Positions 222-57,977 of a stretch of 64,000 bases of DNA are shown here, piece by piece. The DNA comes from an uncultured Bacteroidales bacterium. GTDB lineage: Bacteria > Bacteroidota > Bacteroidia > Bacteroidales > WCHB1-69. The position numbers and the translations under genes are program-made. The notes beneath the pieces are model-generated. The model did not search any database, was not told the origin of the DNA, and saw only the letters and a list, made by a program, of their open reading frames with translations. Position 1 is the first letter of the stretch, and every line of letters starts with the position of its first letter. The DNA is taken from the NCBI GenBank assembly GCA_946413585.1, contig CAMKLG010000010.1, positions 437-64,436 of the forward strand, given 5' to 3'.

Positions 222-229
222 TATTTTTG
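222..229 (+). promoter_or_regulatory. Bacteroidota-type -7 promoter box (TAnnTTTG)
   Basis: TATTTTTG lies 26 nt upstream of the ATG at 255. Confidence 0.55.
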
Positions 230-254
230 CCGCCCGAAAAAACGAGCTGAAAAT

Positions 255-947
255 ATGTCAAAGACACTTAGAACTCCGTTGAAAGATAGATCGTTACCGA
301 ATTATTCCCGCAAAGAGGAAATCCTGAATTGCGCCAGTCATGCGGTTGGCGTGGTCTGCGCCCTCGTGATGATGTATATGATTGTGCGTGCATCGCTGCA
401 AAACCAAAGCTTGCTTGCACTGGTCAGCAGTGTCATCTACGTCCTCTCCGTTTTTGTTATGTTCCTGGTTTCCAGTATCTACCACGGACTTCCCAAAGGG
501 ATGCCCAAACAGGTGATGCGCGTGGTCGATCATTGCGACATCTTCTTCACCATCGCGGGCACCTACACGCCCATTATGCTTTTGGGCGTACTCAAAGTCA
601 ACCCTCCCATGGCGTGGTCGATTTTGGCCGTTGAATGGATTTTCGCCATCCTCGGCATTGTCCTAAATGCCATTGACATCAAAAAATACGCGAAATTCTC
701 CATGATTTGCTACTTGGCCATGGGCTGGTGCGTGATCATCAGTCTGCGCGACACCATCACCGCCATGACGTGGCCGGGCTTTGCCTGGATTCTGTATGGC
801 GGCGTGGCCTACACCATCGGTGCCATCCTCTACCTCATTGGCAAGAAAAAACCTTACCGGCATTTTGTTTTCCACCTTTTCGTACTCGCCGCCGCTGTTT
901 TGCAATTCGTTGGAGTGTTTGGGTACTTGTTGGCTGTTGGCTGTTAG
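255..947 (+). CDS. Hemolysin III / PAQR family 7-TM membrane protein
   Basis: 230 aa and multi-TM. Family-like motifs SSIYHG and HCDIFFTIAGTYTP. ATG start. The stop lies inside a heptamer array. Confidence 0.85.
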   Translation: MSKTLRTPLKDRSLPNYSRKEEILNCASHAVGVVCALVMMYMIVRASLQNQSLLALVSSVIYVLSVFVMFLVSSIYHGLPKGMPKQVMRVVDHCDIFFTIAGTYTPIMLLGVLKVNPPMAWSILAVEWIFAILGIVLNAIDIKKYAKFSMICYLAMGWCVIISLRDTITAMTWPGFAWILYGGVAYTIGAILYLIGKKKPYRHFVFHLFVLAAAVLQFVGVFGYLLAVGC

Positions 948-21255: not shown

Positions 21256-22563
21256 TCACACTCTCTCAATCTTCGCGCCCAGCACGGTAAGCCGTTCCAC
21301 AATGCGCTCGTAACCGCGATCAATTTGCTCCACATTTTGAATCACGCTCGTACCTTCGGCAGAGAGTGCCGCGATAAGCAGCGCAATACCGGCGCGGATA
21401 TCGGGCGAGGACATCTTGGTGGCGCGGAGCTGTTTCTCGCGGGCCAACCCAATCACGATGGCACGGTGAGGATCGCAAAGCACAATCTGCGCACCCATCG
21501 ACTGCAACATATCCACGAAAAAGAGGCGGCTTTCGAACATTTTCTGATGTATCAGCACGCTGCCCTTGGCTTGGATGGCGGTCACCAGCGCAATACTGAT
21601 AAGATCGGGAGTGAATCCCGGCCAAGGCGCGTCAGCGATGGTCAGAATGGAAGCTTCACGCGGGTTGGAATAAATCTCATAGGGTTGCTCGCCGTGCACG
21701 ATCAAGTCGTCGCCCACTTGCTCCATTTTTACGCCCATCTTGCGGAACGTGTAGGGAATAAGCCCTAAATGCTCGCAAGCGCAGTTCTTGATGGTAATTT
21801 CCGACTGCGTCATAGCGGCCATGCCAATGAAACTGCCCACCTCGATCATATCGGGGAAAATGCGGTGTTCGCAACCATGCAACTCCTTGACTCCCTGAAT
21901 CTTCAGCAGGTTGGAGCCGATACCGGAAATCTTCGCGCCCATGTTATTGAGCATGGTGCAAAGCTGGTAAAGATACGGTTCACAGGCAGCATTGAAGATG
22001 GTAGTCTCCCCCTCTGCAAGCACAGCGGCCATCACAATGTTGGCAGTACCCGTCACGGACGGCTCATTCAGCTGCATATAGCAACCCTTTAGCTGTTTTG
22101 CTTCCAGTTCGAAAAACTTCTCGTCGGCGGAAGTGGAAATTACCGCACCAAGTTTCTCCAACCCTTCGAAGTGGGTAGTCAACGGCCGTCGTCCAATCTG
22201 GTCGCCACCAGGTTTGCCGGAGTAGGCCTTGCCGTAACGGCCCAACAGCGGACCGAGCACCATGATGGAAGCACGAATTTTCGTGGAAAGTCGCTCGAAA
22301 TCGTCGGTATGCAACTGCTCGAAATCCACATTTTCCGCCTGGAAGGTGAATGTATGAGCATCCACTGTCGTGATTTTCACCCCCATCAACGCCAAAATCT
22401 CACGATAACGTCGAGTATCGAGAATGTCGGGGACATTGGAGATGGTGACGGGATCTTTGGTCAACAGCACCGCAGAAAGCACCTGCAGGGCTTCGTTTTT
22501 CGCGCCCTGCGGGGTGATTTCGCCGTGGAGGCGGTGACCGCCTTTTATTAGGAATTCTGCCAT
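21256..22563 (-). CDS. murA: UDP-N-acetylglucosamine 1-carboxyvinyltransferase
   Basis: 435 aa. N-terminus FLIKGGHRLHGEITPQGAKNEALQVLSAVLLT and enolpyruvyl-transferase repeats throughout. Confidence 0.95.
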   Translation of the reverse strand: MAEFLIKGGHRLHGEITPQGAKNEALQVLSAVLLTKDPVTISNVPDILDTRRYREILALMGVKITTVDAHTFTFQAENVDFEQLHTDDFERLSTKIRASIMVLGPLLGRYGKAYSGKPGGDQIGRRPLTTHFEGLEKLGAVISTSADEKFFELEAKQLKGCYMQLNEPSVTGTANIVMAAVLAEGETTIFNAACEPYLYQLCTMLNNMGAKISGIGSNLLKIQGVKELHGCEHRIFPDMIEVGSFIGMAAMTQSEITIKNCACEHLGLIPYTFRKMGVKMEQVGDDLIVHGEQPYEIYSNPREASILTIADAPWPGFTPDLISIALVTAIQAKGSVLIHQKMFESRLFFVDMLQSMGAQIVLCDPHRAIVIGLAREKQLRATKMSSPDIRAGIALLIAALSAEGTSVIQNVEQIDRGYERIVERLTVLGAKIERV

Positions 22564-22580: not shown

Positions 22581-22660
22581 CCCCACACTGCGCTCCTTCG
22601 TCGCTTGTGTGGGGTTAATTGTACTGCGTGCGTCTTGTCCCTTCGGGACTGCTCAAGGAA
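22581..22660 (+). repeat. REP-like two-hairpin intergenic element, copy 1
   Basis: Hairpin 1: CCCCACAC (22581-88) / GTGTGGGG (22607-14). Hairpin 2: GTCCC-TTC-GGGAC (22637-49). Then TGCTCAAGGAA. Related copies lie at 53547-53618 (inverted) and 56500-56561. Confidence 0.8.
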
Positions 22661-22691
22661 TTATGTTTAAGGAAATTAACTTATTTCCATT

Positions 22692-22747
22692 CACTAATCA
22701 CTAATCACTAATCACTAATCACTGATCACTGATCACTAATCACCTAT
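22692..22747. repeat. Heptamer tandem array (CACTAAT/CACTGAT) x8
   Basis: Eight consecutive 7-nt units. The pfk stop codon (22744-22746, minus strand) lies in the last unit. Confidence 0.95.
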
Positions 22748-23976
22748 TCCGGAATCACAATCGGGAAATTCTGCGTGAACTCCATGCGATAGGGTGCACC
22801 GATGATGTTCGTCAGGAAATCGGTATATTGATCCGTGAACTTGAACTTGTTGGCATCGTAGTAAGCAGCGGGAAGCGGGAAATTGCCGATGTTGCCCATC
22901 TCGATGGCATCGGTGTGGAACTCTTCAAGTTCGTCGTAGGGGACGATGTCGCGCAAGACGGGCATCTTGCCGTAGTCTTCGCGGAGCAAGAGGTCAACCA
23001 CCTTGTCGGCCAACGTGGAGGTCAAACGACGGTCGTATTCGTAGCACTTACCGGAACGCGGGATGTAGCCGGAAATCTGACCGCGAGCTTCGATGCCGAG
23101 ACGCTTGTTGATTTCGGAAGCGATGACGCCGCTCACGCCGCCGAAGCGCGGGTGACCATACTCGTCGAGGTCGGAGCTGGCATACACCATGCCGAGTTCC
23201 TGTTTCTCGTCGTCCCACCAGCGAACGCCTTCTGAAACGGCAATAATGAGGCTATGTTTCGGAGAACGCATGTACATTTCCTTCACAGATTCGAAGAAAA
23301 ACTCTTTACGCTCTTTGGTCATCTCCACCTCAGGAACCAATGCCATCTGTGCGCCACCGAAAGAGGCCGTACCGGTGAGCCAACCTGCGTCGCGACCCAT
23401 CACTTCGAGCACCATAATGCGCTGGTGCGACTCATTGGTGGTGTGCAACTTAGCCGTCAGTTTTTTGATGGCCATGGCACCTGACGGGAAACCGGGACAC
23501 AACACGGTCTCAAACTGCTGACCGTTGTAGTGGTGGTAAGTACGGGTGCGCAGGTCGTTGTCGATGGTCTTCGGGAAGCCGATGACCGGGATGCCGTAAG
23601 TTTCGTACATCTTCTTGGCCGCGCCGTTGGTATCATCACCGCCGATGGTCACCAGAACATCGATTTTGTAGCGCTCGATGTTGCGGAGAATCTGCTGGGA
23701 GCGGTCTTCGGGACTCTTCTTGCTCGGGAAGGGGTTGGTACGGCTGGACAGCAGCGCGGTGCCACCGTAAAGTCCGTTATAAGGAATATTGGTTAAATCC
23801 ACAATATCGCCGTCGCCGAGGAGGCCTTTCCAGCCGCGCAGCACGCCATAGACGCGGAAGCCAAGCATGGAAGCACGGTTGCGCACCGCCTCGATGCTGG
23901 AGTTGATGGCCGGGGTGTCACCACCGCCAGAAAGAATCGCTAATGTTTTGCCATTAAAGAGTTTGTCTTTTCTCAT
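22744..23976 (-). CDS. pfp: Phosphofructokinase, pyrophosphate-dependent type (PPi-PFK signature residues)
   Basis: 410 aa. GGDDT (Asp where ATP-PFKs have GGDGS), PKTIDND (Lys where ATP-PFKs have PGTIDND), and MGRDAGWL. Confidence 0.75.
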   Translation of the reverse strand: MRKDKLFNGKTLAILSGGGDTPAINSSIEAVRNRASMLGFRVYGVLRGWKGLLGDGDIVDLTNIPYNGLYGGTALLSSRTNPFPSKKSPEDRSQQILRNIERYKIDVLVTIGGDDTNGAAKKMYETYGIPVIGFPKTIDNDLRTRTYHHYNGQQFETVLCPGFPSGAMAIKKLTAKLHTTNESHQRIMVLEVMGRDAGWLTGTASFGGAQMALVPEVEMTKERKEFFFESVKEMYMRSPKHSLIIAVSEGVRWWDDEKQELGMVYASSDLDEYGHPRFGGVSGVIASEINKRLGIEARGQISGYIPRSGKCYEYDRRLTSTLADKVVDLLLREDYGKMPVLRDIVPYDELEEFHTDAIEMGNIGNFPLPAAYYDANKFKFTDQYTDFLTNIIGAPYRMEFTQNFPIVIPE

Positions 23977-51376: not shown

Positions 51377-53491
51377 TTATCCTGCATAGCTGTGCATACC
51401 GCCTAACAAGAAATTGACCCCAAAATAGGTAATCAGTACGCTTAGGAAAGCCAAAATGCCGTAAACATGGAAGAACATCGGTTTGCGGAACACAGTCCAA
51501 ACCGTTTTGTGCAACGGAACGATATAAATCAGCAGCGTAATCAGTGCCCACACCTCCTTGGGATCCCATGACCAGTAGTTACCCCACGAAATGTTGGCCC
51601 ACACCGCACCGATGAAGATGCCCGCCGTCAGCAAAGCGACTGCTGGGTAAAGCATGATGGTGCTGATATCTTGCAAGCGTTGCAGATAAGCGGTGTTTTC
51701 AGGCTGCGAAACGCGCACCACCACCGCGCTAATGCCATTCAACATAATGAAGAACAGCAGCGCGTAGGCAATCATAATCACCGTGACGTGCAAACTCAGC
51801 AGCGGTGACGAGAGTACCGGCATCAGATGGGTGACCGGCGGGTTAGAGCCGCCCATCATCTGCACCAACAACACCACACCCGTCATCAGCAGTCCAGCGG
51901 GCAATGCCATTTCGTACTTCCGACTCATTATCAAGGTGATAACACAAATACTTAACGCCAATAGGTTCATCGAATCGAAACTGCCGGCCATCGGCACGTG
52001 CCCGCCGACAATCCACCGGAGGATGAACAACAGAGACAAGAAGGCGCACAATAACGACATCCATATCACCATTGCCCCATGAACATTTCTCGGAAGTTTT
52101 CGTCCTTTTCCAATGCAGATTAATGCGATAGCGAAGCAAAGCAAGCCTAATGTAATGTTCACCATCGGGAGCCAACGACCCATCGTCAGACGATTGTAGA
52201 GTCGTTCGGAGCGGTATTTCGAGGCAGGCTGTGTAAGTCCGAGGGAGTATTTTTCCTGATAGATTTTGGTTTTCTCGAAGAGTTCGTTTAAGGCATCCAA
52301 TTTGCCCGTCACCACATATTCCTTGCACAAGCTCATCTGCTTACGAATGAAAAGGTACTCATCATCAGGAATTGTCAAGGGCAGCTGATCGTTTTGCGAG
52401 TACCATGTCACTTCACGCAAGCTGTCGGCGTGGGGAAACATCTTCAACAGTTGACCGTTTAGCAACATATTGATAATCTGTTGTTTCTCTTCAGCCGCTC
52501 GCTGTTTGTTCCGTTTCAAATCTTTTTCGAGCTTGGGAATCGGGGCGTTTTGCCAGTCATCTGTGTAGAAGAGCCAGCCGCTGAAAACCTGTTCCGGAGT
52601 GTAACCTTGGTATCGTGCTTTTCCGTACAGTTTGGTTGTGAAATCCTTGGCCAACGTCTGTAACGGACACACACGTCCCTTGTACATCACGTACATCTGT
52701 CCCATTTTGTCGGCACTCTCCCTTGGCAAGGTGCGGGGTTTATTAGCTGCCTGTGCAGGCAGGAACACGCTCATGGTCAGCAGGACAGCCAACACGGCCG
52801 CCTTGCTTGCCGTCTTTTGCAACAACTGACGAAATTCGCTCTTTCTGTCGAGAAACATCCCCACGATGGTGACGAAAAGCAGGAGATAACCCGCGTAGGT
52901 AACGCCCACCCCCCAGGGGTCATGAGCCACCGACAGTACAGAGTTGCCCTCCTCATCGTAATCGCTTTGGTAAAAGCGGTAATGGCGGTGTTTGAGAATA
53001 TGGTTCATGGAAATCGTGGCATCCAAAACACTCCCATTGTCCAATACTTGAAGATGGCTCACGAAGTCCATCGGCGAATGGGTGCCTGGGTAAGTTTCCA
53101 CCTCGAAACGACTGAGTGTCAAAGAGAACGGAAGATTTTCCGTGTGTTTATCTCCATGTTTTTCAACCGTGAATTGGTTGGTAGCCACACCCGGTTTCAG
53201 GGTCATTTCGCCGTGCTGTCCCGTGAGCATCGTCAGCAAAGCGCCGAGCAGAATGAGCAGCACGGAGCTGTGCAGGGCGCAGACGACCGGTCGTTGCCAG
53301 CTTTTGCGAGTGATCATCATGATCATCATTCCGATGGTAAGCAACGCCCACAGCGCCACAAACCACCAACTGCCATAGACATGGCTCAGTGCATAGTCAT
53401 TGCCGTGGAATTTCTCCACGATGGTGCCCGCTGCCATCGCCACAATCAGGGCGATGGTTAGGACGGAGAGGAGGTGTCGGAGGGTTTTCAT
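51377..53491 (-). CDS. ccsBA: System II cytochrome c synthetase, fused ResB/CcsB-CcsA (CcsBA)
   Basis: 704 aa polytopic protein. WWD heme-handling motif WGNYWSWDPKEVWAL in the C-terminal half and a ResB-like N-terminal half. Confidence 0.85.
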   Translation of the reverse strand: MKTLRHLLSVLTIALIVAMAAGTIVEKFHGNDYALSHVYGSWWFVALWALLTIGMMIMMITRKSWQRPVVCALHSSVLLILLGALLTMLTGQHGEMTLKPGVATNQFTVEKHGDKHTENLPFSLTLSRFEVETYPGTHSPMDFVSHLQVLDNGSVLDATISMNHILKHRHYRFYQSDYDEEGNSVLSVAHDPWGVGVTYAGYLLLFVTIVGMFLDRKSEFRQLLQKTASKAAVLAVLLTMSVFLPAQAANKPRTLPRESADKMGQMYVMYKGRVCPLQTLAKDFTTKLYGKARYQGYTPEQVFSGWLFYTDDWQNAPIPKLEKDLKRNKQRAAEEKQQIINMLLNGQLLKMFPHADSLREVTWYSQNDQLPLTIPDDEYLFIRKQMSLCKEYVVTGKLDALNELFEKTKIYQEKYSLGLTQPASKYRSERLYNRLTMGRWLPMVNITLGLLCFAIALICIGKGRKLPRNVHGAMVIWMSLLCAFLSLLFILRWIVGGHVPMAGSFDSMNLLALSICVITLIMSRKYEMALPAGLLMTGVVLLVQMMGGSNPPVTHLMPVLSSPLLSLHVTVIMIAYALLFFIMLNGISAVVVRVSQPENTAYLQRLQDISTIMLYPAVALLTAGIFIGAVWANISWGNYWSWDPKEVWALITLLIYIVPLHKTVWTVFRKPMFFHVYGILAFLSVLITYFGVNFLLGGMHSYAG

Positions 53492-53493
53492 CA

Positions 53494-53517
53494 GATTAAG
53501 AATTAAAAATTAAAAAA
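53494..53517. repeat. Short heptamer array (GATTAAG AATTAAA AATTAAA) in the ccsBA leader
   Basis: Lies between the -7 box (53523-30) and the ATG (53491). Same unit family as 25616 and 55281. Confidence 0.7.
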
Positions 53518-53522
53518 GGGTG

Positions 53523-53530
53523 CAAAAATA
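53523..53530 (-). promoter_or_regulatory. -7 promoter box (minus strand) for ccsBA
   Basis: CAAAAATA on the + strand, 32 nt upstream of the ATG at 53491. Confidence 0.55.
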
Positions 53531-53546
53531 ATCAAAAAAACATTTT

Positions 53547-53714
53547 CCTTAAGCAGCCTCGAAGAGGCAAGACGCACGAAGTGCAATTAACCCCACACAA
53601 GCGAAGCGTAGTGTGGGGATCAAGCCGCACAAGCGAAGCGCAGTGTGGGGATCAAGCCACACAAGCGAAGCGCAGTATGGGGATCAAGCCACACAAGCAA
53701 AGCGCAGTGTGGGG
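53547..53714 (-). repeat. REP-like element, copy 2 (inverted), with its terminal hairpin amplified to four units of 32-bp period
   Basis: CCTTAAGCA-GCCTC GAA GAGGC-...TTAA, then hairpin units C(C/G)CACAAGC(G/A)AAGCG(T/C)AGT(G/A)TGGGG at 53593, 53625, 53657 and 53689, joined by ATCAAG. Confidence 0.9.
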
Positions 53715-53723
53715 TCAGAAAAG

Positions 53724-55280
53724 CTAAATCGCGTTGATGAATTTTACGACGGCGTCGCGCTCTTCCTTGCTTAGGTTACGGAATTTCTCCACTGTCCAGC
53801 GGGCATCACTTTGGGAGCTGCCGTGCCACATAATGGCTTCCACGACGTTACGCGCGCGGCAGTCGTGCAAGCGGTCGCTGGAACCCGTACACAAGGCGGA
53901 AAGTCCGCGACCCCACAGCGGGGTAGTACGACACCAACCCGTACGGATATCGTTCACCATACAGAGACGATGCTGCACCATATCGGTGTAAGGCCATATT
54001 TTCTGGTTGGGATAGCGTGGCAAACGGCTGTCGGCCGTAGTGAAGAAACCGTTGGGGTCGGTGAAGCGATCCGGGCCGGTAGTCCAGCTGGGGCGGTGAC
54101 AACTTGCACAGCCGATCTCGCGGAAAATCTTGCGCCCTTTCTGAATTTCGGGATCATCCAAGTTACGGGCGGCGGGCACTGCCAAACCGCGATGCCAAAC
54201 CATCAAATTGACATAATCATCGTTGCTCATTTCAGCAGGTAAACTCTTGTTCATCAAGTAGTTGTAGATATCTGTTTCCGGATTGCCCGTGATATTGTAT
54301 TCAGGGAAATAGGCATAGAAATTGGCTTGAACCTCAGGGTCTTGCGAGGCCACGCGGGCGTAGGTTTCCGTCATGTAGTGATAGCGACGGTCGCCGCGCG
54401 TCACATTGGTGATGTTCCAGATGGCATTTGCGCCAGGACCGTCCTGTAGCGGGCCGCGGGAGCAGGCGTAGGTGAAACGCTTCGGATGGTTGGTTTTGCC
54501 GTACAACCCTGTGGGTGCCCAATCAGTACCAGCCCACATCGCCGGGTTCAGTTTCGCACCTGCATTGTATTCTCGCTGATACTGTACCTTCAACGAATCA
54601 TCCGGAATAGCATCCAGCAAACCCGTTCCATAGATACCGATAGTCGATTCCAGACGCACTTTTTCGGTTCCATAAGCGATAGTCGAACCGTTAGACTCCA
54701 ACGGAACGTAGTAAGCGGAGGCGGGGATATAGACTTCGGGGTAAATCAAGCTGTAAGACTCACCATCGGGGAAGCGGTTGCCCCACTCGTCCGTATAGTC
54801 TATCCACGTGATCTGAATTTGACTCTCGTCAATAGGTGCTTTGAAGGGCGGCACAGCCTTGGTCTGCGGCATACCGGTAAGGGACGAGATGTAGTTGTCG
54901 TTCTGATCGGTAACCACCAGAAGATAGCCGTTGCCCCAATCGCTCGCCGCATAACGATCCATACGTTTACCATGTCCATAGCCTGGATGACAAGCGATGC
55001 AGGAACTGCGGATATACAGAGGTCCTAATCCGTTGAACGGCGGTGTGTTCTGCGTAAAATCGCGCTCAAACAGATATTCACCGTACTTAAACGCCGCGAT
55101 GTCGTTAACCGCAGGCGCAGGATCCTCATACGCCGACGATGAACTGTTGAACGTCGTACCCAACTGACCACCCGCGTAGGTTTCCTCTTCAATCCAGGAA
55201 AGTTCTGTATTTTCAGGTTTATGGCAGCCTGCCAACAGGAATAATCCCAAAACAATAATGGTTGTCGTTATTTTATTCAT
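53724..55280 (-). CDS. Di-heme c-type cytochrome, DUF1111 / cytochrome-c-peroxidase-like oxidoreductase
   Basis: 518 aa lipoprotein-like protein (LLAGC). Two CxxCH motifs: CIACH and CASCH. Confidence 0.8.
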   Translation of the reverse strand: MNKITTTIIVLGLFLLAGCHKPENTELSWIEEETYAGGQLGTTFNSSSSAYEDPAPAVNDIAAFKYGEYLFERDFTQNTPPFNGLGPLYIRSSCIACHPGYGHGKRMDRYAASDWGNGYLLVVTDQNDNYISSLTGMPQTKAVPPFKAPIDESQIQITWIDYTDEWGNRFPDGESYSLIYPEVYIPASAYYVPLESNGSTIAYGTEKVRLESTIGIYGTGLLDAIPDDSLKVQYQREYNAGAKLNPAMWAGTDWAPTGLYGKTNHPKRFTYACSRGPLQDGPGANAIWNITNVTRGDRRYHYMTETYARVASQDPEVQANFYAYFPEYNITGNPETDIYNYLMNKSLPAEMSNDDYVNLMVWHRGLAVPAARNLDDPEIQKGRKIFREIGCASCHRPSWTTGPDRFTDPNGFFTTADSRLPRYPNQKIWPYTDMVQHRLCMVNDIRTGWCRTTPLWGRGLSALCTGSSDRLHDCRARNVVEAIMWHGSSQSDARWTVEKFRNLSKEERDAVVKFINAI

Positions 55281-55308
55281 AATTCTTAATTCTTAATTCA
55301 TAATTAAT
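55281..55308. repeat. Heptamer array (AATTCTT AATTCTT AATTCAT AATTAAT) filling a whole intergenic spacer
   Basis: It spans the 23-nt gap between the imelysin stop and the di-heme start. Confidence 0.9.
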
Positions 55309-56449
55309 CTTCGTAAGTGCGAAGCGCCTCATTCACCTTCGACAGCACATCGTCAAGGTTCTGGCAAGCCTCGATAGCTGCGGCGTTGGCAGGGTTGGTG
55401 TAATTGCTGACAAACGGGCGCGGCATGGCATCAATCTTGGCGAGAGCCTCTCTGATGGCCTCTTCCACCTCACTGTCGAGTTTGCTGTCCATCTTCTTCA
55501 CATACGCATGCAGGGAGAGTTTGTCGTTGCGCTGTCCCTTGATGCCGCCATAGTAGGCATTCTCAATGCTGACGATGTTGTTGTAGAAGTCCTCGATAGA
55601 TTTTTGGCTGTAGGGTGATTCTATGTAGTTGGGATCTTCGCCGTTGTACGGTTTCCCGATTTTAGAAGTACCCACCTCGTCGGCGATGGTTTTGCAGCCA
55701 TCCACGATAGCCATGAGGCCAGAGACCGTGCTGGCGTAGGTGCTACCCGGATTGCCGGACAGCTTGAGGTTGTCGCCGTAACTGTTGCCGCTGCCATTGA
55801 CACTCGTGTTGAGTTCCAGCTCCTCCACTTTGTCGCGGTGCGATTTCGGAGCATTGTCGCCGTTCCAGCTCACCTCGAGTTGGAAGCAACGATTGCGCAG
55901 GTCGCCGGCCACAGCCACAGCGTACACCATCTGCATGTCGGTAATCTCACTAGCGTCCTTTGCCTGACCATTGCGGAAGAGGATATACTCGATGCCGTGG
56001 AAACCGAGGAGCGCGTTGCCGAGCTGCTCGCCCGCCACCACATCGCCATCCTCGCCAGCCAATGCAGCCAACATATCCGGACTGTTCATCAGATTGTTGA
56101 AGGCATCCACATCCAACGGCCAAGAATCAATGTGAGGGTCGATGCCGAAATCCGACGCGGCACCGAAGAGGAAGGCTTCGCTTTTCTCCCACCAAGCGCG
56201 GGCATTCAGGAACGTTTCACACACCTTGTTCAAATCGCTCTGTGAACCGCTGGTGCGGAAAGCATCCAATTCATCAACAAGCTGATCTGTATAGTTGGCC
56301 AGATTCATGTAAGTTGGCGCAATGGTATGTTCCACATACTGTTGCAACACCTGTGCTTGTTTTTCATTTACCAATTCACCATTGCCGTGATTACACCCCA
56401 CGGCCAGGAATGCGATTGCCACCATTGTGGCGATAAATGTTTTTTTCAT
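55304..56449 (-). CDS. Imelysin (peptidase M75-like / EfeO-Algp7-like) lipoprotein
   Basis: 381 aa. Lipobox LAVGC. Family GxHxxE motif in LGFHGIEYILF. Confidence 0.8.
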   Translation of the reverse strand: MKKTFIATMVAIAFLAVGCNHGNGELVNEKQAQVLQQYVEHTIAPTYMNLANYTDQLVDELDAFRTSGSQSDLNKVCETFLNARAWWEKSEAFLFGAASDFGIDPHIDSWPLDVDAFNNLMNSPDMLAALAGEDGDVVAGEQLGNALLGFHGIEYILFRNGQAKDASEITDMQMVYAVAVAGDLRNRCFQLEVSWNGDNAPKSHRDKVEELELNTSVNGSGNSYGDNLKLSGNPGSTYASTVSGLMAIVDGCKTIADEVGTSKIGKPYNGEDPNYIESPYSQKSIEDFYNNIVSIENAYYGGIKGQRNDKLSLHAYVKKMDSKLDSEVEEAIREALAKIDAMPRPFVSNYTNPANAAAIEACQNLDDVLSKVNEALRTYED

Positions 56450-56499
56450 CTTATTATTCTTTATGTTTGACTCTGTCTGGGATTATTTTTTTCATTCCA

Positions 56500-56561
56500 G
56501 GGGTTGCGCTTCGCTTACCCCTGTCTACCAAGCTCTTGCCCCTACGGGGCTGCTCAAGGAA
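56500..56561 (+). repeat. REP-like two-hairpin element, copy 3
   Basis: Hairpin 1 is GGGGT-TGCGCTTCGCTT-ACCCC: same loop as copies 1 and 2, different stem. Hairpin 2 is GCCCC-TAC-GGGGC (56538-50). Then TGCTCAAGGAA. Confidence 0.75.
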
Positions 56562-56572
56562 TATTTTTTAAT

Positions 56573-56612
56573 TCATCGTCCATTCATCGTATCATCGTGT
56601 CATCGTATTATC
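56573..56612. repeat. Short-period array (TCATCGT units, period 8-11)
   Basis: TCATCGT occurs at 56573, 56584, 56592 and 56600. The array abuts the stop codon of the porin-like gene (56608-10). Confidence 0.75.
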
Positions 56613-57951
56613 CTTTCTTATGAAATTCCTTGCTAAACATTCCCGCCCAGGTAATTCCCAGCGCGAACCACGGTTCTTGGTTGTACTGCGACTTGAGCAG
56701 GCGGATGCCGCCCTCGGCTTTGACGACGATCTCCTTGATGGGGCTGTAGTTGATGCCGCCGCTGACACACTGGCGGTCAGTCCATGCGTAATCTGTCATG
56801 TTGTGCCCCGGAATATAGGAGTCGTAATATTCGTAACGGGCGAAGAGATAGAGTTTGTGACGATCCATTTTGGGATTCTTGTGATGATGGAAAACATCGT
56901 AGCCGATTTCGCCGCCCGCACTCCAAGCCGCTTGACCCACAAGGGTTTGCGGGTACGGAGCCTGAGAGCTATGGGGCAATGTAGAGTTATAAACGGAGAT
57001 CAACTCACAGTCGGAGAGGTGGCCGTAGAGACCGCTACCGCGTATAACAAGACCGCCTGTTTTGTAACTGAAATCGAGACCACCGATGAGCGCAGTACCA
57101 CGCACCTTTGCGTAGCGAGAGGAACTTTCGTCAGTGATGATGTCGTTGCGGAAGGTATTGCCCACGAAACCGCTGATGCCTATGTGCAACCCTTTGATGC
57201 TGTAGTTATCGACGCGGGCGGCCACGGCCAACTTATTGGCAACGCGAAACTCGTAAGGCGAGGCAGAACCGTCGTGTGCCCAACCGGAAACGCTGAACAT
57301 GCTGGAGTTCAGCGACGGAATCAACATCACATCATAACGCCAGTCTTGAATGCGTCCCCAAACCTCAATACCGGTTTCGTGCCACGTACAAGGGATGATA
57401 GTATTCTCGCCTTCAGGACGATAGACTCCAAAAAACTGGGTAGGCAGATGGGCATTGTTCGTACCGCCAACGGGAACGACAATGTGACCTGCACGAATGT
57501 TCATCTTTCCACCCCAGAAGGCTTTCTGCAACCAAAACTGTTCCAAAGCGACCTCGCCGCCGCGCTCAATCTCCTTCTCGAACTCACCGGTCTCCTCAGC
57601 CTCCACTTCCACCGCCGACTCTGTGCCGCCATGCTCAAATTCTATCTCGGTATTGAAACTCCAACCATGTCCGAAATCATAACCTAACATAATGACGGCA
57701 TGGGGCAAATCAACACGCCCATGTCCCTTCGAGCCAGCGTAGTTTGCAGCGTGAGAATAACGGAAAACATTGTCACTGAAGAAATTGTATTTATAAACAG
57801 CCTCGCCATAACCACCAATGGTAAGCGTGCCTAACGACTTTCCTTTTGCCGTACTTTTAACCTTTGCGGTGTCTGCGCTGTTCTGTGCAATAACGGTCTG
57901 TAAACCAAAGAATAAAATGCCTAAAGAAGCGAATAAAATCTTTCTGCTCAT
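56608..57951 (-). CDS. Outer-membrane beta-barrel (porin-like) protein, first gene of the imelysin cluster
   Basis: Start set at the ATG at 57951 (MSRKILFASLGILFFGLQTVIAQ); the ORF-track start is a TTG inside the -7 box. Alternating aromatic/Gly beta-strand pattern. Confidence 0.5.
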   Translation of the reverse strand: MSRKILFASLGILFFGLQTVIAQNSADTAKVKSTAKGKSLGTLTIGGYGEAVYKYNFFSDNVFRYSHAANYAGSKGHGRVDLPHAVIMLGYDFGHGWSFNTEIEFEHGGTESAVEVEAEETGEFEKEIERGGEVALEQFWLQKAFWGGKMNIRAGHIVVPVGGTNNAHLPTQFFGVYRPEGENTIIPCTWHETGIEVWGRIQDWRYDVMLIPSLNSSMFSVSGWAHDGSASPYEFRVANKLAVAARVDNYSIKGLHIGISGFVGNTFRNDIITDESSSRYAKVRGTALIGGLDFSYKTGGLVIRGSGLYGHLSDCELISVYNSTLPHSSQAPYPQTLVGQAAWSAGGEIGYDVFHHHKNPKMDRHKLYLFARYEYYDSYIPGHNMTDYAWTDRQCVSGGINYSPIKEIVVKAEGGIRLLKSQYNQEPWFALGITWAGMFSKEFHKKG

Positions 57952-57969
57952 AAACTTGATTTTATGATG

Positions 57970-57977
57970 CAAAAGTA
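57970..57977 (-). promoter_or_regulatory. -7 promoter box (minus strand)
   Basis: CAAAAGTA on the + strand equals TACTTTTG on the minus strand, 19 nt upstream of the ATG at 57951. Confidence 0.55.

Follow-up and report, generated by a model that had tools for sequence, protein, structure and literature searches.

The stretch of DNA analyzed here (the window) covers 64,000 nucleotides of one contig (C10) in the draft genome (2.98 Mb, 125 contigs, 48% G+C) of an uncultured Bacteroidales bacterium, and contains three copies of a short repeat composed of several hairpins (Table 1). The three copies listed by an earlier, sequence-only reading were all found in the window sequence; its limits for copy 1 (22581-22660, given there on the + strand) were exact, but the head of copy 2 begins at 53545 and not at 53547, and the hairpin-1 stem of copy 3, which lies on the - strand, has its outer end at 56497.

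Copy 1 is placed between a phosphofructokinase-like gene and a MurA-like gene, in sense orientation, in a gap of 180 nt that is filled with repeats. Besides the unit, this gap carries a degenerate second head, a duplication that is also present at the orthologous site of species G022, and a tandem 7-nt array. Tandem arrays with a 7-8-nt period (CACTAAT, CATCGTA and others) adjoin many units and fill the junctions, and those of 7 nt, which accompany many copies, lie outside the conserved unit. Copy 2 is antisense to both of its neighbours, a di-haem oxidoreductase-like gene and a ResB/CcsA-like gene, and is continued by three extra tandem hairpin-1 units, while the orthologous copy in species G017 has one hairpin-1 unit only. 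Copy 3, between an imelysin-like gene and an unassigned ORF, consists (on the - strand) of a head, a hairpin 2 (GCCCC-GTA-GGGGC), a linker AAGAGCTTGGTAG and a hairpin 1 of the CCAGGGG/CCCCTGG type. The genes that flank the three copies are unrelated and, therefore, the copies are not within one duplicated block, a possibility that the sequence-only reading had itself raised.

Table 1. Positions of the repeat units, their parts, neighbouring genes and related loci. Unprefixed positions refer to the window; for units, the strand is the one that reads head-first.
Feature	Position	Strand	Remarks
MurA-like gene	ATG at 22563
Copy 1, A-type unit	22581-22660	-	Covariance-model score 91 bits; sense to neighbours
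Copy 1, hairpin 1	22581-22614		+ strand coordinates
Copy 1, middle hairpin	22621-22631		+ strand coordinates
Copy 1, hairpin 2	22637-22649		+ strand coordinates
Copy 1, head TGCTCAAGGAA	22650-22660		+ strand coordinates
Degenerate second head TTCCTTAAACA	22664-22674	-	3 nt upstream of copy 1 head
Tandem 7-nt array (CACTAAT/CACTGAT)n	22693-22752		Between upstream stop codon and copy 1
Phosphofructokinase-like gene	Stop at 22744
ResB/CcsA-like gene	51377-53491	-
Conserved TATTTTTG -7 box of the ResB/CcsA-like gene	53491-53545
Copy 2, A-type unit	53545-53618	+	Head-first on +; covariance-model score 104 bits
Copy 2, head TTCCTTAAGCA	53545-53555
Copy 2, hairpin 2	53556-53568
Copy 2, middle hairpin	53574-53584
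Copy 2, hairpin 1	53591-53618
Three extra tandem hairpin-1 units	53619-53714	+	32-nt period; after copy 2
Di-haem oxidoreductase-like gene	53724-55280	-
Imelysin-like gene	55304-56449
Copy 3, B-type unit	56497-56561	-	Covariance-model score 47.5 bits; sense to neighbours
Tandem array, 7-8-nt period	56566-56600
ORF next to copy 3	56608-57972
Y1 gene of contig C18	C18:4391-4870
Y1 gene of contig C23	C23:20415-20930
Family C units (examples)	C23:20145-20195, C23:20893-20960, C2:81722, C21:10723
Inverted doublets of variant units	C12:58660-58850, C114:3334-3575
Seven head-to-tail units, ~95-nt period	L116 (G042:C20:22600-24800), positions 223-864		Directly upstream of a C18-gene homologue

Anatomy and covariation of the unit

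Read on its head-first strand, a unit is composed of an 11-nt head (TTCCTTRAGCA), hairpin 2, a linker or third hairpin, and hairpin 1. The head is nearly invariant and unpaired, and is the best-conserved part of the unit; conservation begins sharply at its first T, with only an A/T-rich stretch upstream, in which about 85% of the copies carry AAA(A/C)NNN before the head, AAA(A/C) occupying positions -7 to -4. Hairpin 2 has a stem of 5 bp (GCCTC, GTCCC or GCCCC, with their complements) and a loop that starts with G and ends with A in 74 of 75 cases (60 GNA and 14 GNNA), the 4-nt loops being mostly not GNRA (GTTA, GATA, GCTA). In type A units a middle hairpin follows (GCAC-GAA-GTGC or GCGC-GAA-GCGC, then AATTAA), which is replaced in type B and "solo" units by the linker AAGAGCTYGGTAG. 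The terminal hairpin exists in at least two types: hairpin 1 of type A reads CCCCACAC-AA-[GC-GAA-GC]-GCA-GTGTGGGG and contains an inner hairpin that covaries (GCG/CGC, GGC/GCC, GGCC/GGCC), whereas hairpin 1 of type B is CCAGGGG...CCCCTGG. Hairpin 1 is frequently repeated in tandem, with one to four repeats per unit. GGTAG stands directly 5' of hairpin 1 in the B and solo units and in the units that flank the Y1 gene of contig C18 (described below), a position at which A-type units have TTAA, GTAA or ATAA.

This anatomy corrects several details of the sequence-only reading. The "spacer" that it described in copies 1 and 2 is the covarying third hairpin (GCAC-GAA-GTGC or GCGC-GAA-GCGC), the loop insertion that it took as peculiar to copy 1 corresponds to an inner stem extended by 6 nt, which 13 of 46 A-type copies have, and the stem of copy 3, read as a variant of CCCCACAC/GTGTGGGG, belongs to a different module (CCAGGGG/CCCCTGG), akin to that of a sister family. 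Its proposal that the stems covary was confirmed with 46 A-type copies and a four-helix structure of 19 pairs: 98.7% of the pair cells are paired, eight of the 19 pairs change on both sides (49 cells), and none of 500 column shuffles reached the observed covariation score. When the partner is slid by 1-3 columns, pairing falls to 26-59%. Compensatory differences are also found at orthologous sites, since copy 2 has GCCTC/GAGGC in hairpin 2 in this genome and GCCCC/GGGGC in G017. Wobble cells on the sense strand comprise 15 G-U and 7 A-C, although nine of the 15 G-U fall within one column. Compared with shuffled sequences, the folding of either strand is better, whether computed for RNA or for DNA. 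A pairing of GAGC in the head with GCTY in the linker, predicted in one fold, was discarded because R and Y do not covary across the B and solo copies.

Distribution, orientation and turnover at gene junctions

The motif TGCTYAAGGAA occurs 62 times in the genome (about 3 expected), 76 sites match an nhmmer profile built on hairpin 2 and the head (E<0.01), and the genome-wide search with a covariance model that the sequence-only reading had proposed, using a model built from 46 copies, gives 98 matches (approximately 100 copies). Copies are found on 39 or more contigs and are nearly all intergenic. Within the genus, the model finds matches in 23 of 24 species of a first set (E<=0.01) and in five of six further species (E<=0.001), the number of copies per species ranging from 0, 1 or 3 up to at least 120, and 16 other families of the order yielded two marginal matches only (E = 3e-5 and 0.01). 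In a scan for the exact pattern with one genome per species, all matches came from metagenome-assembled genomes of uncultured rumen Bacteroidales (cattle, yak, goat, sheep and reindeer). The repeat family is thus restricted to one uncultured rumen Bacteroidales genus. Rfam gave no match in the whole window at the gathering score, and none at E<=1 around copy 1. Singletons and head-to-tail arrays predominate, with three inverted pairs only among the 98 matches (on C12, C18 and C114). The pairs of C12 and C114 are inverted doublets formed by variant units (with hairpins of the CACCATAC and GTGCCAGAGGCAC types) and enclose no gene; in other species the flanks of Y1 genes look similar, and the doublets may be what is left of lost transposase loci.

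Orientation and spacing were counted using crude longest-ORF gene calls. At junctions between genes of the same direction, the head-first strand is sense in 58 cases and antisense in 2 in this genome (binomial p = 3e-15), sense in 53 and antisense in none in other genomes of the genus (81 loci examined), and for the sister family C (see below) the counts are 45 and 2. The orientation relative to transcription, which had been considered not constant, is therefore sense in 58/60 cases here and 53/53 elsewhere, copy 2 being one of the two antisense cases, and the argument for a DNA-level element that was built on it fails: a near-constant sense orientation cannot favour a purely DNA-level reading. 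It points, if anything, to selection on the transcript or to insertion coupled to it. Replication direction was also considered as a cause and rejected, because genes are only 53:47 relative to the local GC skew and, therefore, it cannot explain the orientation. The sense strand of the units lies on the G-rich strand in a ratio of 42:18, a separate bias that is weaker than 58:2 and that fits the direction expected if the hairpin strand were the lagging-strand template.

The upstream stop codon and the head are separated by a median of 48 nt, and hairpin 1 and the following ATG by a median of 37 nt, the latter distances clustering at 18-39 nt. Around the copies there is almost no Bacteroidetes -7 box (TAnnTTTG), and sigma-70-type scans stay at the shuffle level, so an own promoter was rejected. 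Two divergent spacers do contain a -7 box, 19-24 nt upstream of the head, and there the unit is therefore at the start of the 5' leader. A scan for terminator-like sites found none at the three window copies; on the sense strand no unit hairpin is followed by a T-run, and purine-rich spacers follow instead. The only copy with a T-run after it is the antisense copy 2, 14 nt after the stem. In five relatives a classical terminator hairpin and a T-run are found in the corresponding spacer, together with the TATTTTTG -7 box, and in this genome (G000) and in G017 the antisense unit occupies exactly the place of that terminator hairpin, before the T-run and the -7 box. The ResB/CcsA-like gene, to which this conserved box belongs, has in relatives a leader with 7-nt repeats of very variable length (approximately 25 CATTCAT units in G046). 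The possibility that the head supplies a stop codon (TTCCT-TGA or TAA) was also rejected, given that few upstream ORFs end there (at -7, one at -6), and the TGA or TAA of the head is seldom their actual stop.

Thirteen species were compared at the junction upstream of the MurA-like gene. In G019 and G045 this gene and the phosphofructokinase-like gene overlap (TAATG), and in G004 they are 2 nt apart, while the junction contains an A unit in this genome and G005, a B-like unit in the same place in G022 and G003, and two inverted 7-nt arrays that would form long hairpins in G017, G018 and G008. In G002, G046 and G009 the place is taken by another palindrome, tagged with GTAG (GTAGGGGCGAATAATnATTCGCCCCTAC), with a related half-site ahead of it; this palindrome may represent another REP family of the genus. 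At the junction of copy 3, this genome has a B unit, G005 and G022 have A units, G003 has a decayed unit, and G019, G046, G010 and G018 have units of the sister family C; G017 has no unit, and approximately 14 nt separate its stop codon and ATG. These comparisons indicate that closely related species differ by gain, loss or exchange of units, although the flanks are highly diverged and no transposition event, clean-ended empty site or target duplication was seen in the cross-species alignments. A look-up of contigs encoding exactly the MurA-like protein, meant to reveal empty sites in other strains, returned none. Because the same gene pairs overlap (TAATG) in some species, they form operons, and the units sit inside gene sets that are operons in other species of the genus. 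Judging from these positions and from the missing signatures of terminators and promoters, the units, inside operons or in 5' leaders, are probably co-transcribed with their neighbours.

Y1 transposase genes and a sister repeat family

The genome contains two Y1_Tnp (PF01797) genes, one copy each, on contigs C18 and C23, and both are flanked by units of the same repeats; the sequence-only reading had suggested looking for a RAYT/IS200-like transposase. The C23 gene has full units of a sister family, called C, in inverted orientation on both sides, and its last dozen or so codons are encoded by a family C unit. This family has 54 strict copies on 35 contigs and the structure TTCCAARA-GGGCTGMARGCCC-GACNNRTGTCARC-CYAGGGTGAGCGNAGCGAGCCCTRGG, with a last hairpin (CYAGGG...CCCTRGG) of the type borne by B units such as copy 3. 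The C18 gene is preceded by four hairpin-1A units and then a GGTAG-linker-hairpin, and is followed by one forward and one inverted unit. At 12 of 12 loci with C18-gene homologues in other species, model matches lie within approximately 200 nt, mostly inverted on the two sides; one of these homologues (L116) lies directly downstream of a head-to-tail array of seven units.

The presence of Y1 genes and the abundance of units are associated. Three species free of Y1 genes have 0, 0 and 1 weak copy, whereas 27 of 29 Y1-bearing genomes have at least six copies (Fisher p = 0.002, all of these being draft genomes), and the presence of a C18-clade gene goes with higher copy counts (Mann-Whitney p = 0.0025; top counts of at least 120). 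Two observations count against a mobilization of the units by these enzymes: no C18-clade gene was found in the draft assemblies of the copy-rich G002, G003, G018 and G008, and the units of the C18 type that flank the gene are devoid of the TTCCTTRAGCA head, which every dispersed A or B copy possesses.

The two proteins (about 160-170 amino acids, with a conserved C-terminal extension) are 34% identical and contain the motifs DHVH and YIKRQKEHH (C18) and NHVH and YIARQEEHH (C23). By the signature described for TnpA-Y1 subclass 1.2 (Y motif Y---Q--HH, HuH motif DH[IV]H; PMC6006769), and specifically by Y---Q--HH, both can be assigned to this subclass. Both are below the cut-off of 80 bits of the NCBIfam REP_Tyr_transpos model (32.9 bits for C18 and 21.9 for C23), while in the IS200/IS605 model, with a cut-off of 55, the C18 protein passes (65 bits) and the C23 protein falls just short (50 bits). 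Their nearest solved structures in the PDB are IS200-type transposases, with no E. coli RAYT structure among the matches. Members of subclass 1.2 have been described as low-copy, limited to Bacteroidetes and Cyanobacteria and lacking the properties of insertion sequences, and also as generally without terminal hairpins and with no REP association (PMC6006769), the latter being a further point against mobilization of the units by these enzymes, together with the low REP_Tyr_transpos scores and the predominance of singletons over inverted REPIN doublets.

Origin of the family and comparison with known systems

The description of these repeats as a dispersed, structure-conserving, REP-like family is supported, and the REP-like character advanced by the sequence-only reading has gained from the approximately 100 copies, the covariation and the Y1 genes flanked by the same repeats. 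The label of MITE, also used there, does not suit them, because their two ends, the head TTCCTTRAGCA on one side and the arm of hairpin 1 on the other, do not form an inverted repeat; no MITE-type flanking direct repeat was found in 75 aligned flanks. Mobilization by the two Y1 proteins is the most likely origin of the family, as suggested by the flanking units, and as a whole we think it fairly probable that the units are genus-specific REP-like miniature elements, spread by RAYT-like Y1 enzymes, with their orientation kept by selection. The enzymes encoded on C18 and C23 would recognize hairpins in single-stranded DNA, the terminal hairpins of the units matching those that flank the two Y1 genes in inverted orientation, and would spread units to gene junctions, with rapid turnover between species. 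Surviving sense units would be transcribed together with their neighbours and form stable RNA hairpins without terminator activity. An antisense unit together with an adjoining T-run could act like a terminator, polar inside operons, and selection against it would generate the orientation bias, such a unit being kept presumably only where a terminator is wanted, as for copy 2. Sense hairpins would be tolerated and may modulate mRNA stability or processing, like the REPs of E. coli, which are stabilizing or processing hairpins in mRNA.

Selection is favoured here as the cause of the orientation, and transcription-coupled insertion is the main, and more novel, alternative. According to it, the units would also be mobilized by Y1 enzymes, but the bias would be made at insertion, through a non-template strand exposed by transcription or a strand-specific target, and the RNA hairpins would have no role. 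We consider this unlikely, although several observations are in its favour: the orientation is far stronger than replication direction could give, the A-rich AAA(A/C)NNN found before the head in about 85% of the copies could be a target, and all loops are C-GNA-G on the sense strand, a form exceptionally stable in DNA. Y1 HUH transposases, moreover, act on single-stranded DNA (PMC6006769). The 42:18 excess on the G-rich strand rather fits a route through the lagging-strand template, which alone cannot give 97% of co-orientation with genes, and the antisense copy 2 is older than the split between this genome and G017, its persistence implying that antisense insertions can arise. To our knowledge, no Y1 transposase is coupled to transcription, which also counts against an insertion bias.

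It is distinctly unlikely, in our opinion, that the unit is instead a cis-acting RNA module of leaders and intercistronic regions (acting on stability, processing or translation), with the closeness to Y1 genes incidental or secondary. The near-absolute sense orientation, the tight spacing to the next start codon (the cluster at 18-39 nt), the units just downstream of -7 boxes in leaders, the single-stranded head as the best-conserved part and the compensatory changes at orthologous sites would all be expected from such a module. However, the neighbour genes are functionally unrelated, the number of copies varies between 0 and at least 120 among species of a single genus, most 4-nt loops are of a type other than GNRA, Rfam has no match around copy 1 even at E<=1, and the same junction is empty or contains unrelated palindromes in sister species, even beside the MurA-like gene, a gene that is normally essential. 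A wider proposal may be put forward tentatively, with a modest chance of being correct: subclass 1.2 Y1 proteins could be the REP-mobilizing enzymes of Bacteroidota, with elements inserted or kept only when the hairpin strand is sense, either by single-strand transposition coupled to transcription instead of replication, or as domesticated RNA modules of leaders and intercistronic regions whose head would be a site for a protein or RNase.

That the Y1 genes are ordinary IS200/IS605 insertion sequences and the units their decayed ends (PATE- or MITE-like) is very improbable: the C18 protein does pass the IS200/IS605 model (65 vs 55 bits) and the best solved relatives are of the IS200 type, but each Y1 gene is single-copy and the pair only 34% identical, the flanking units are inverted while IS200/IS605 ends are direct, approximately 150 units for two genes is the REP/RAYT pattern, and the Y---Q--HH motif leads to subclass 1.2, described as lacking insertion sequence properties (PMC6006769). 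Finally, it is hardly credible that the units are transcription terminators of the upstream genes, despite their median distance of 48 nt from stop codons and the location of copy 2 in a terminator's place, because in the prevailing orientation no T-run follows the hairpins, the next start codon comes within approximately 20-40 nt without a promoter motif, and the same gene pairs overlap as TAATG in some species and hence form operons.

If the units are REP-like elements mobilized by Y1 enzymes, the case would extend REP/RAYT systems, whose understanding comes almost entirely from Proteobacteria, to uncultured rumen Bacteroidales, and would give a partner to a subclass of IS200-like transposases that had no known DNA partner. 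The case is noteworthy for the subclass of its partner transposases, for a unit that combines several hairpins with a conserved single-stranded head, and for the near-absolute co-orientation with transcription, which is unexplained by the replication-fork model of Y1 transposition. There are also consequences for annotation, since approximately 150 junctions per genome in this genus carry units, some of them within 20 nt of start codons (e.g., that of the MurA-like gene), and translation of some units produces spurious extensions of ORFs. Should the orientation rule reflect function, the units would constitute a natural set of operon-internal RNA hairpins for studies of mRNA processing in a phylum without Shine-Dalgarno-led initiation.

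Among modular repeats, the units can be compared, from general knowledge, with BOX elements of Streptococcus pneumoniae and MIRUs of mycobacteria, which are intergenic repeats of modular build in which the number of one module varies, as does that of the tandem hairpin-1 units here (one to four). MIRUs are located inside operons in the same orientation as the genes and carry small coupling ORFs. Neither family is known to be related in sequence to the units described here, and we know of no dedicated Y1 transposase for either of them.

The units can also be compared with the REP/BIME and REPIN elements and the RAYTs of E. coli, Pseudomonas and Stenotrophomonas. In both cases there are short extragenic palindromes in about 100 copies, located mainly after genes and between same-direction or convergent genes, with compensatory and G-T changes in their stems; single-copy Y1 HUH genes are flanked by inverted units, several repeat-transposase pairs coexist in one genome, and the families are lineage-restricted and widely variable in copy number. 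The GTAG tag that REPs carry at the base of the recognition hairpin has a counterpart in some units of this genus, as GGTAG in the B, solo and C18-flank units, with TTAA, GTAA or ATAA at that position in A-type copies. The units of this genus differ in being composites of two or three unlike hairpins plus an 11-nt single-stranded head, in occurring mostly as singletons or head-to-tail arrays and not as inverted doublets, and in being almost always co-oriented with transcription. The transposases are different as well, because they belong, by their signature, to the IS200-like subclass 1.2 and not to the class 2 RAYTs, and fall short of the NCBI RAYT model. A further difference is the host, a genus of uncultured rumen Bacteroidales; a 2013 survey of tagged REPs reported only CGTC-type repeats in Bacteroidetes (PMC3733652). 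With the TnpA-Y1 subclass 1.2 described by Quentin et al. (2018, PMC6006769) the two proteins share motifs, size, low copy number and occurrence in Bacteroidetes, and they depart from that description in that here both genes, and 12 of 12 homologues, are flanked by members of an abundant, dispersed hairpin family.
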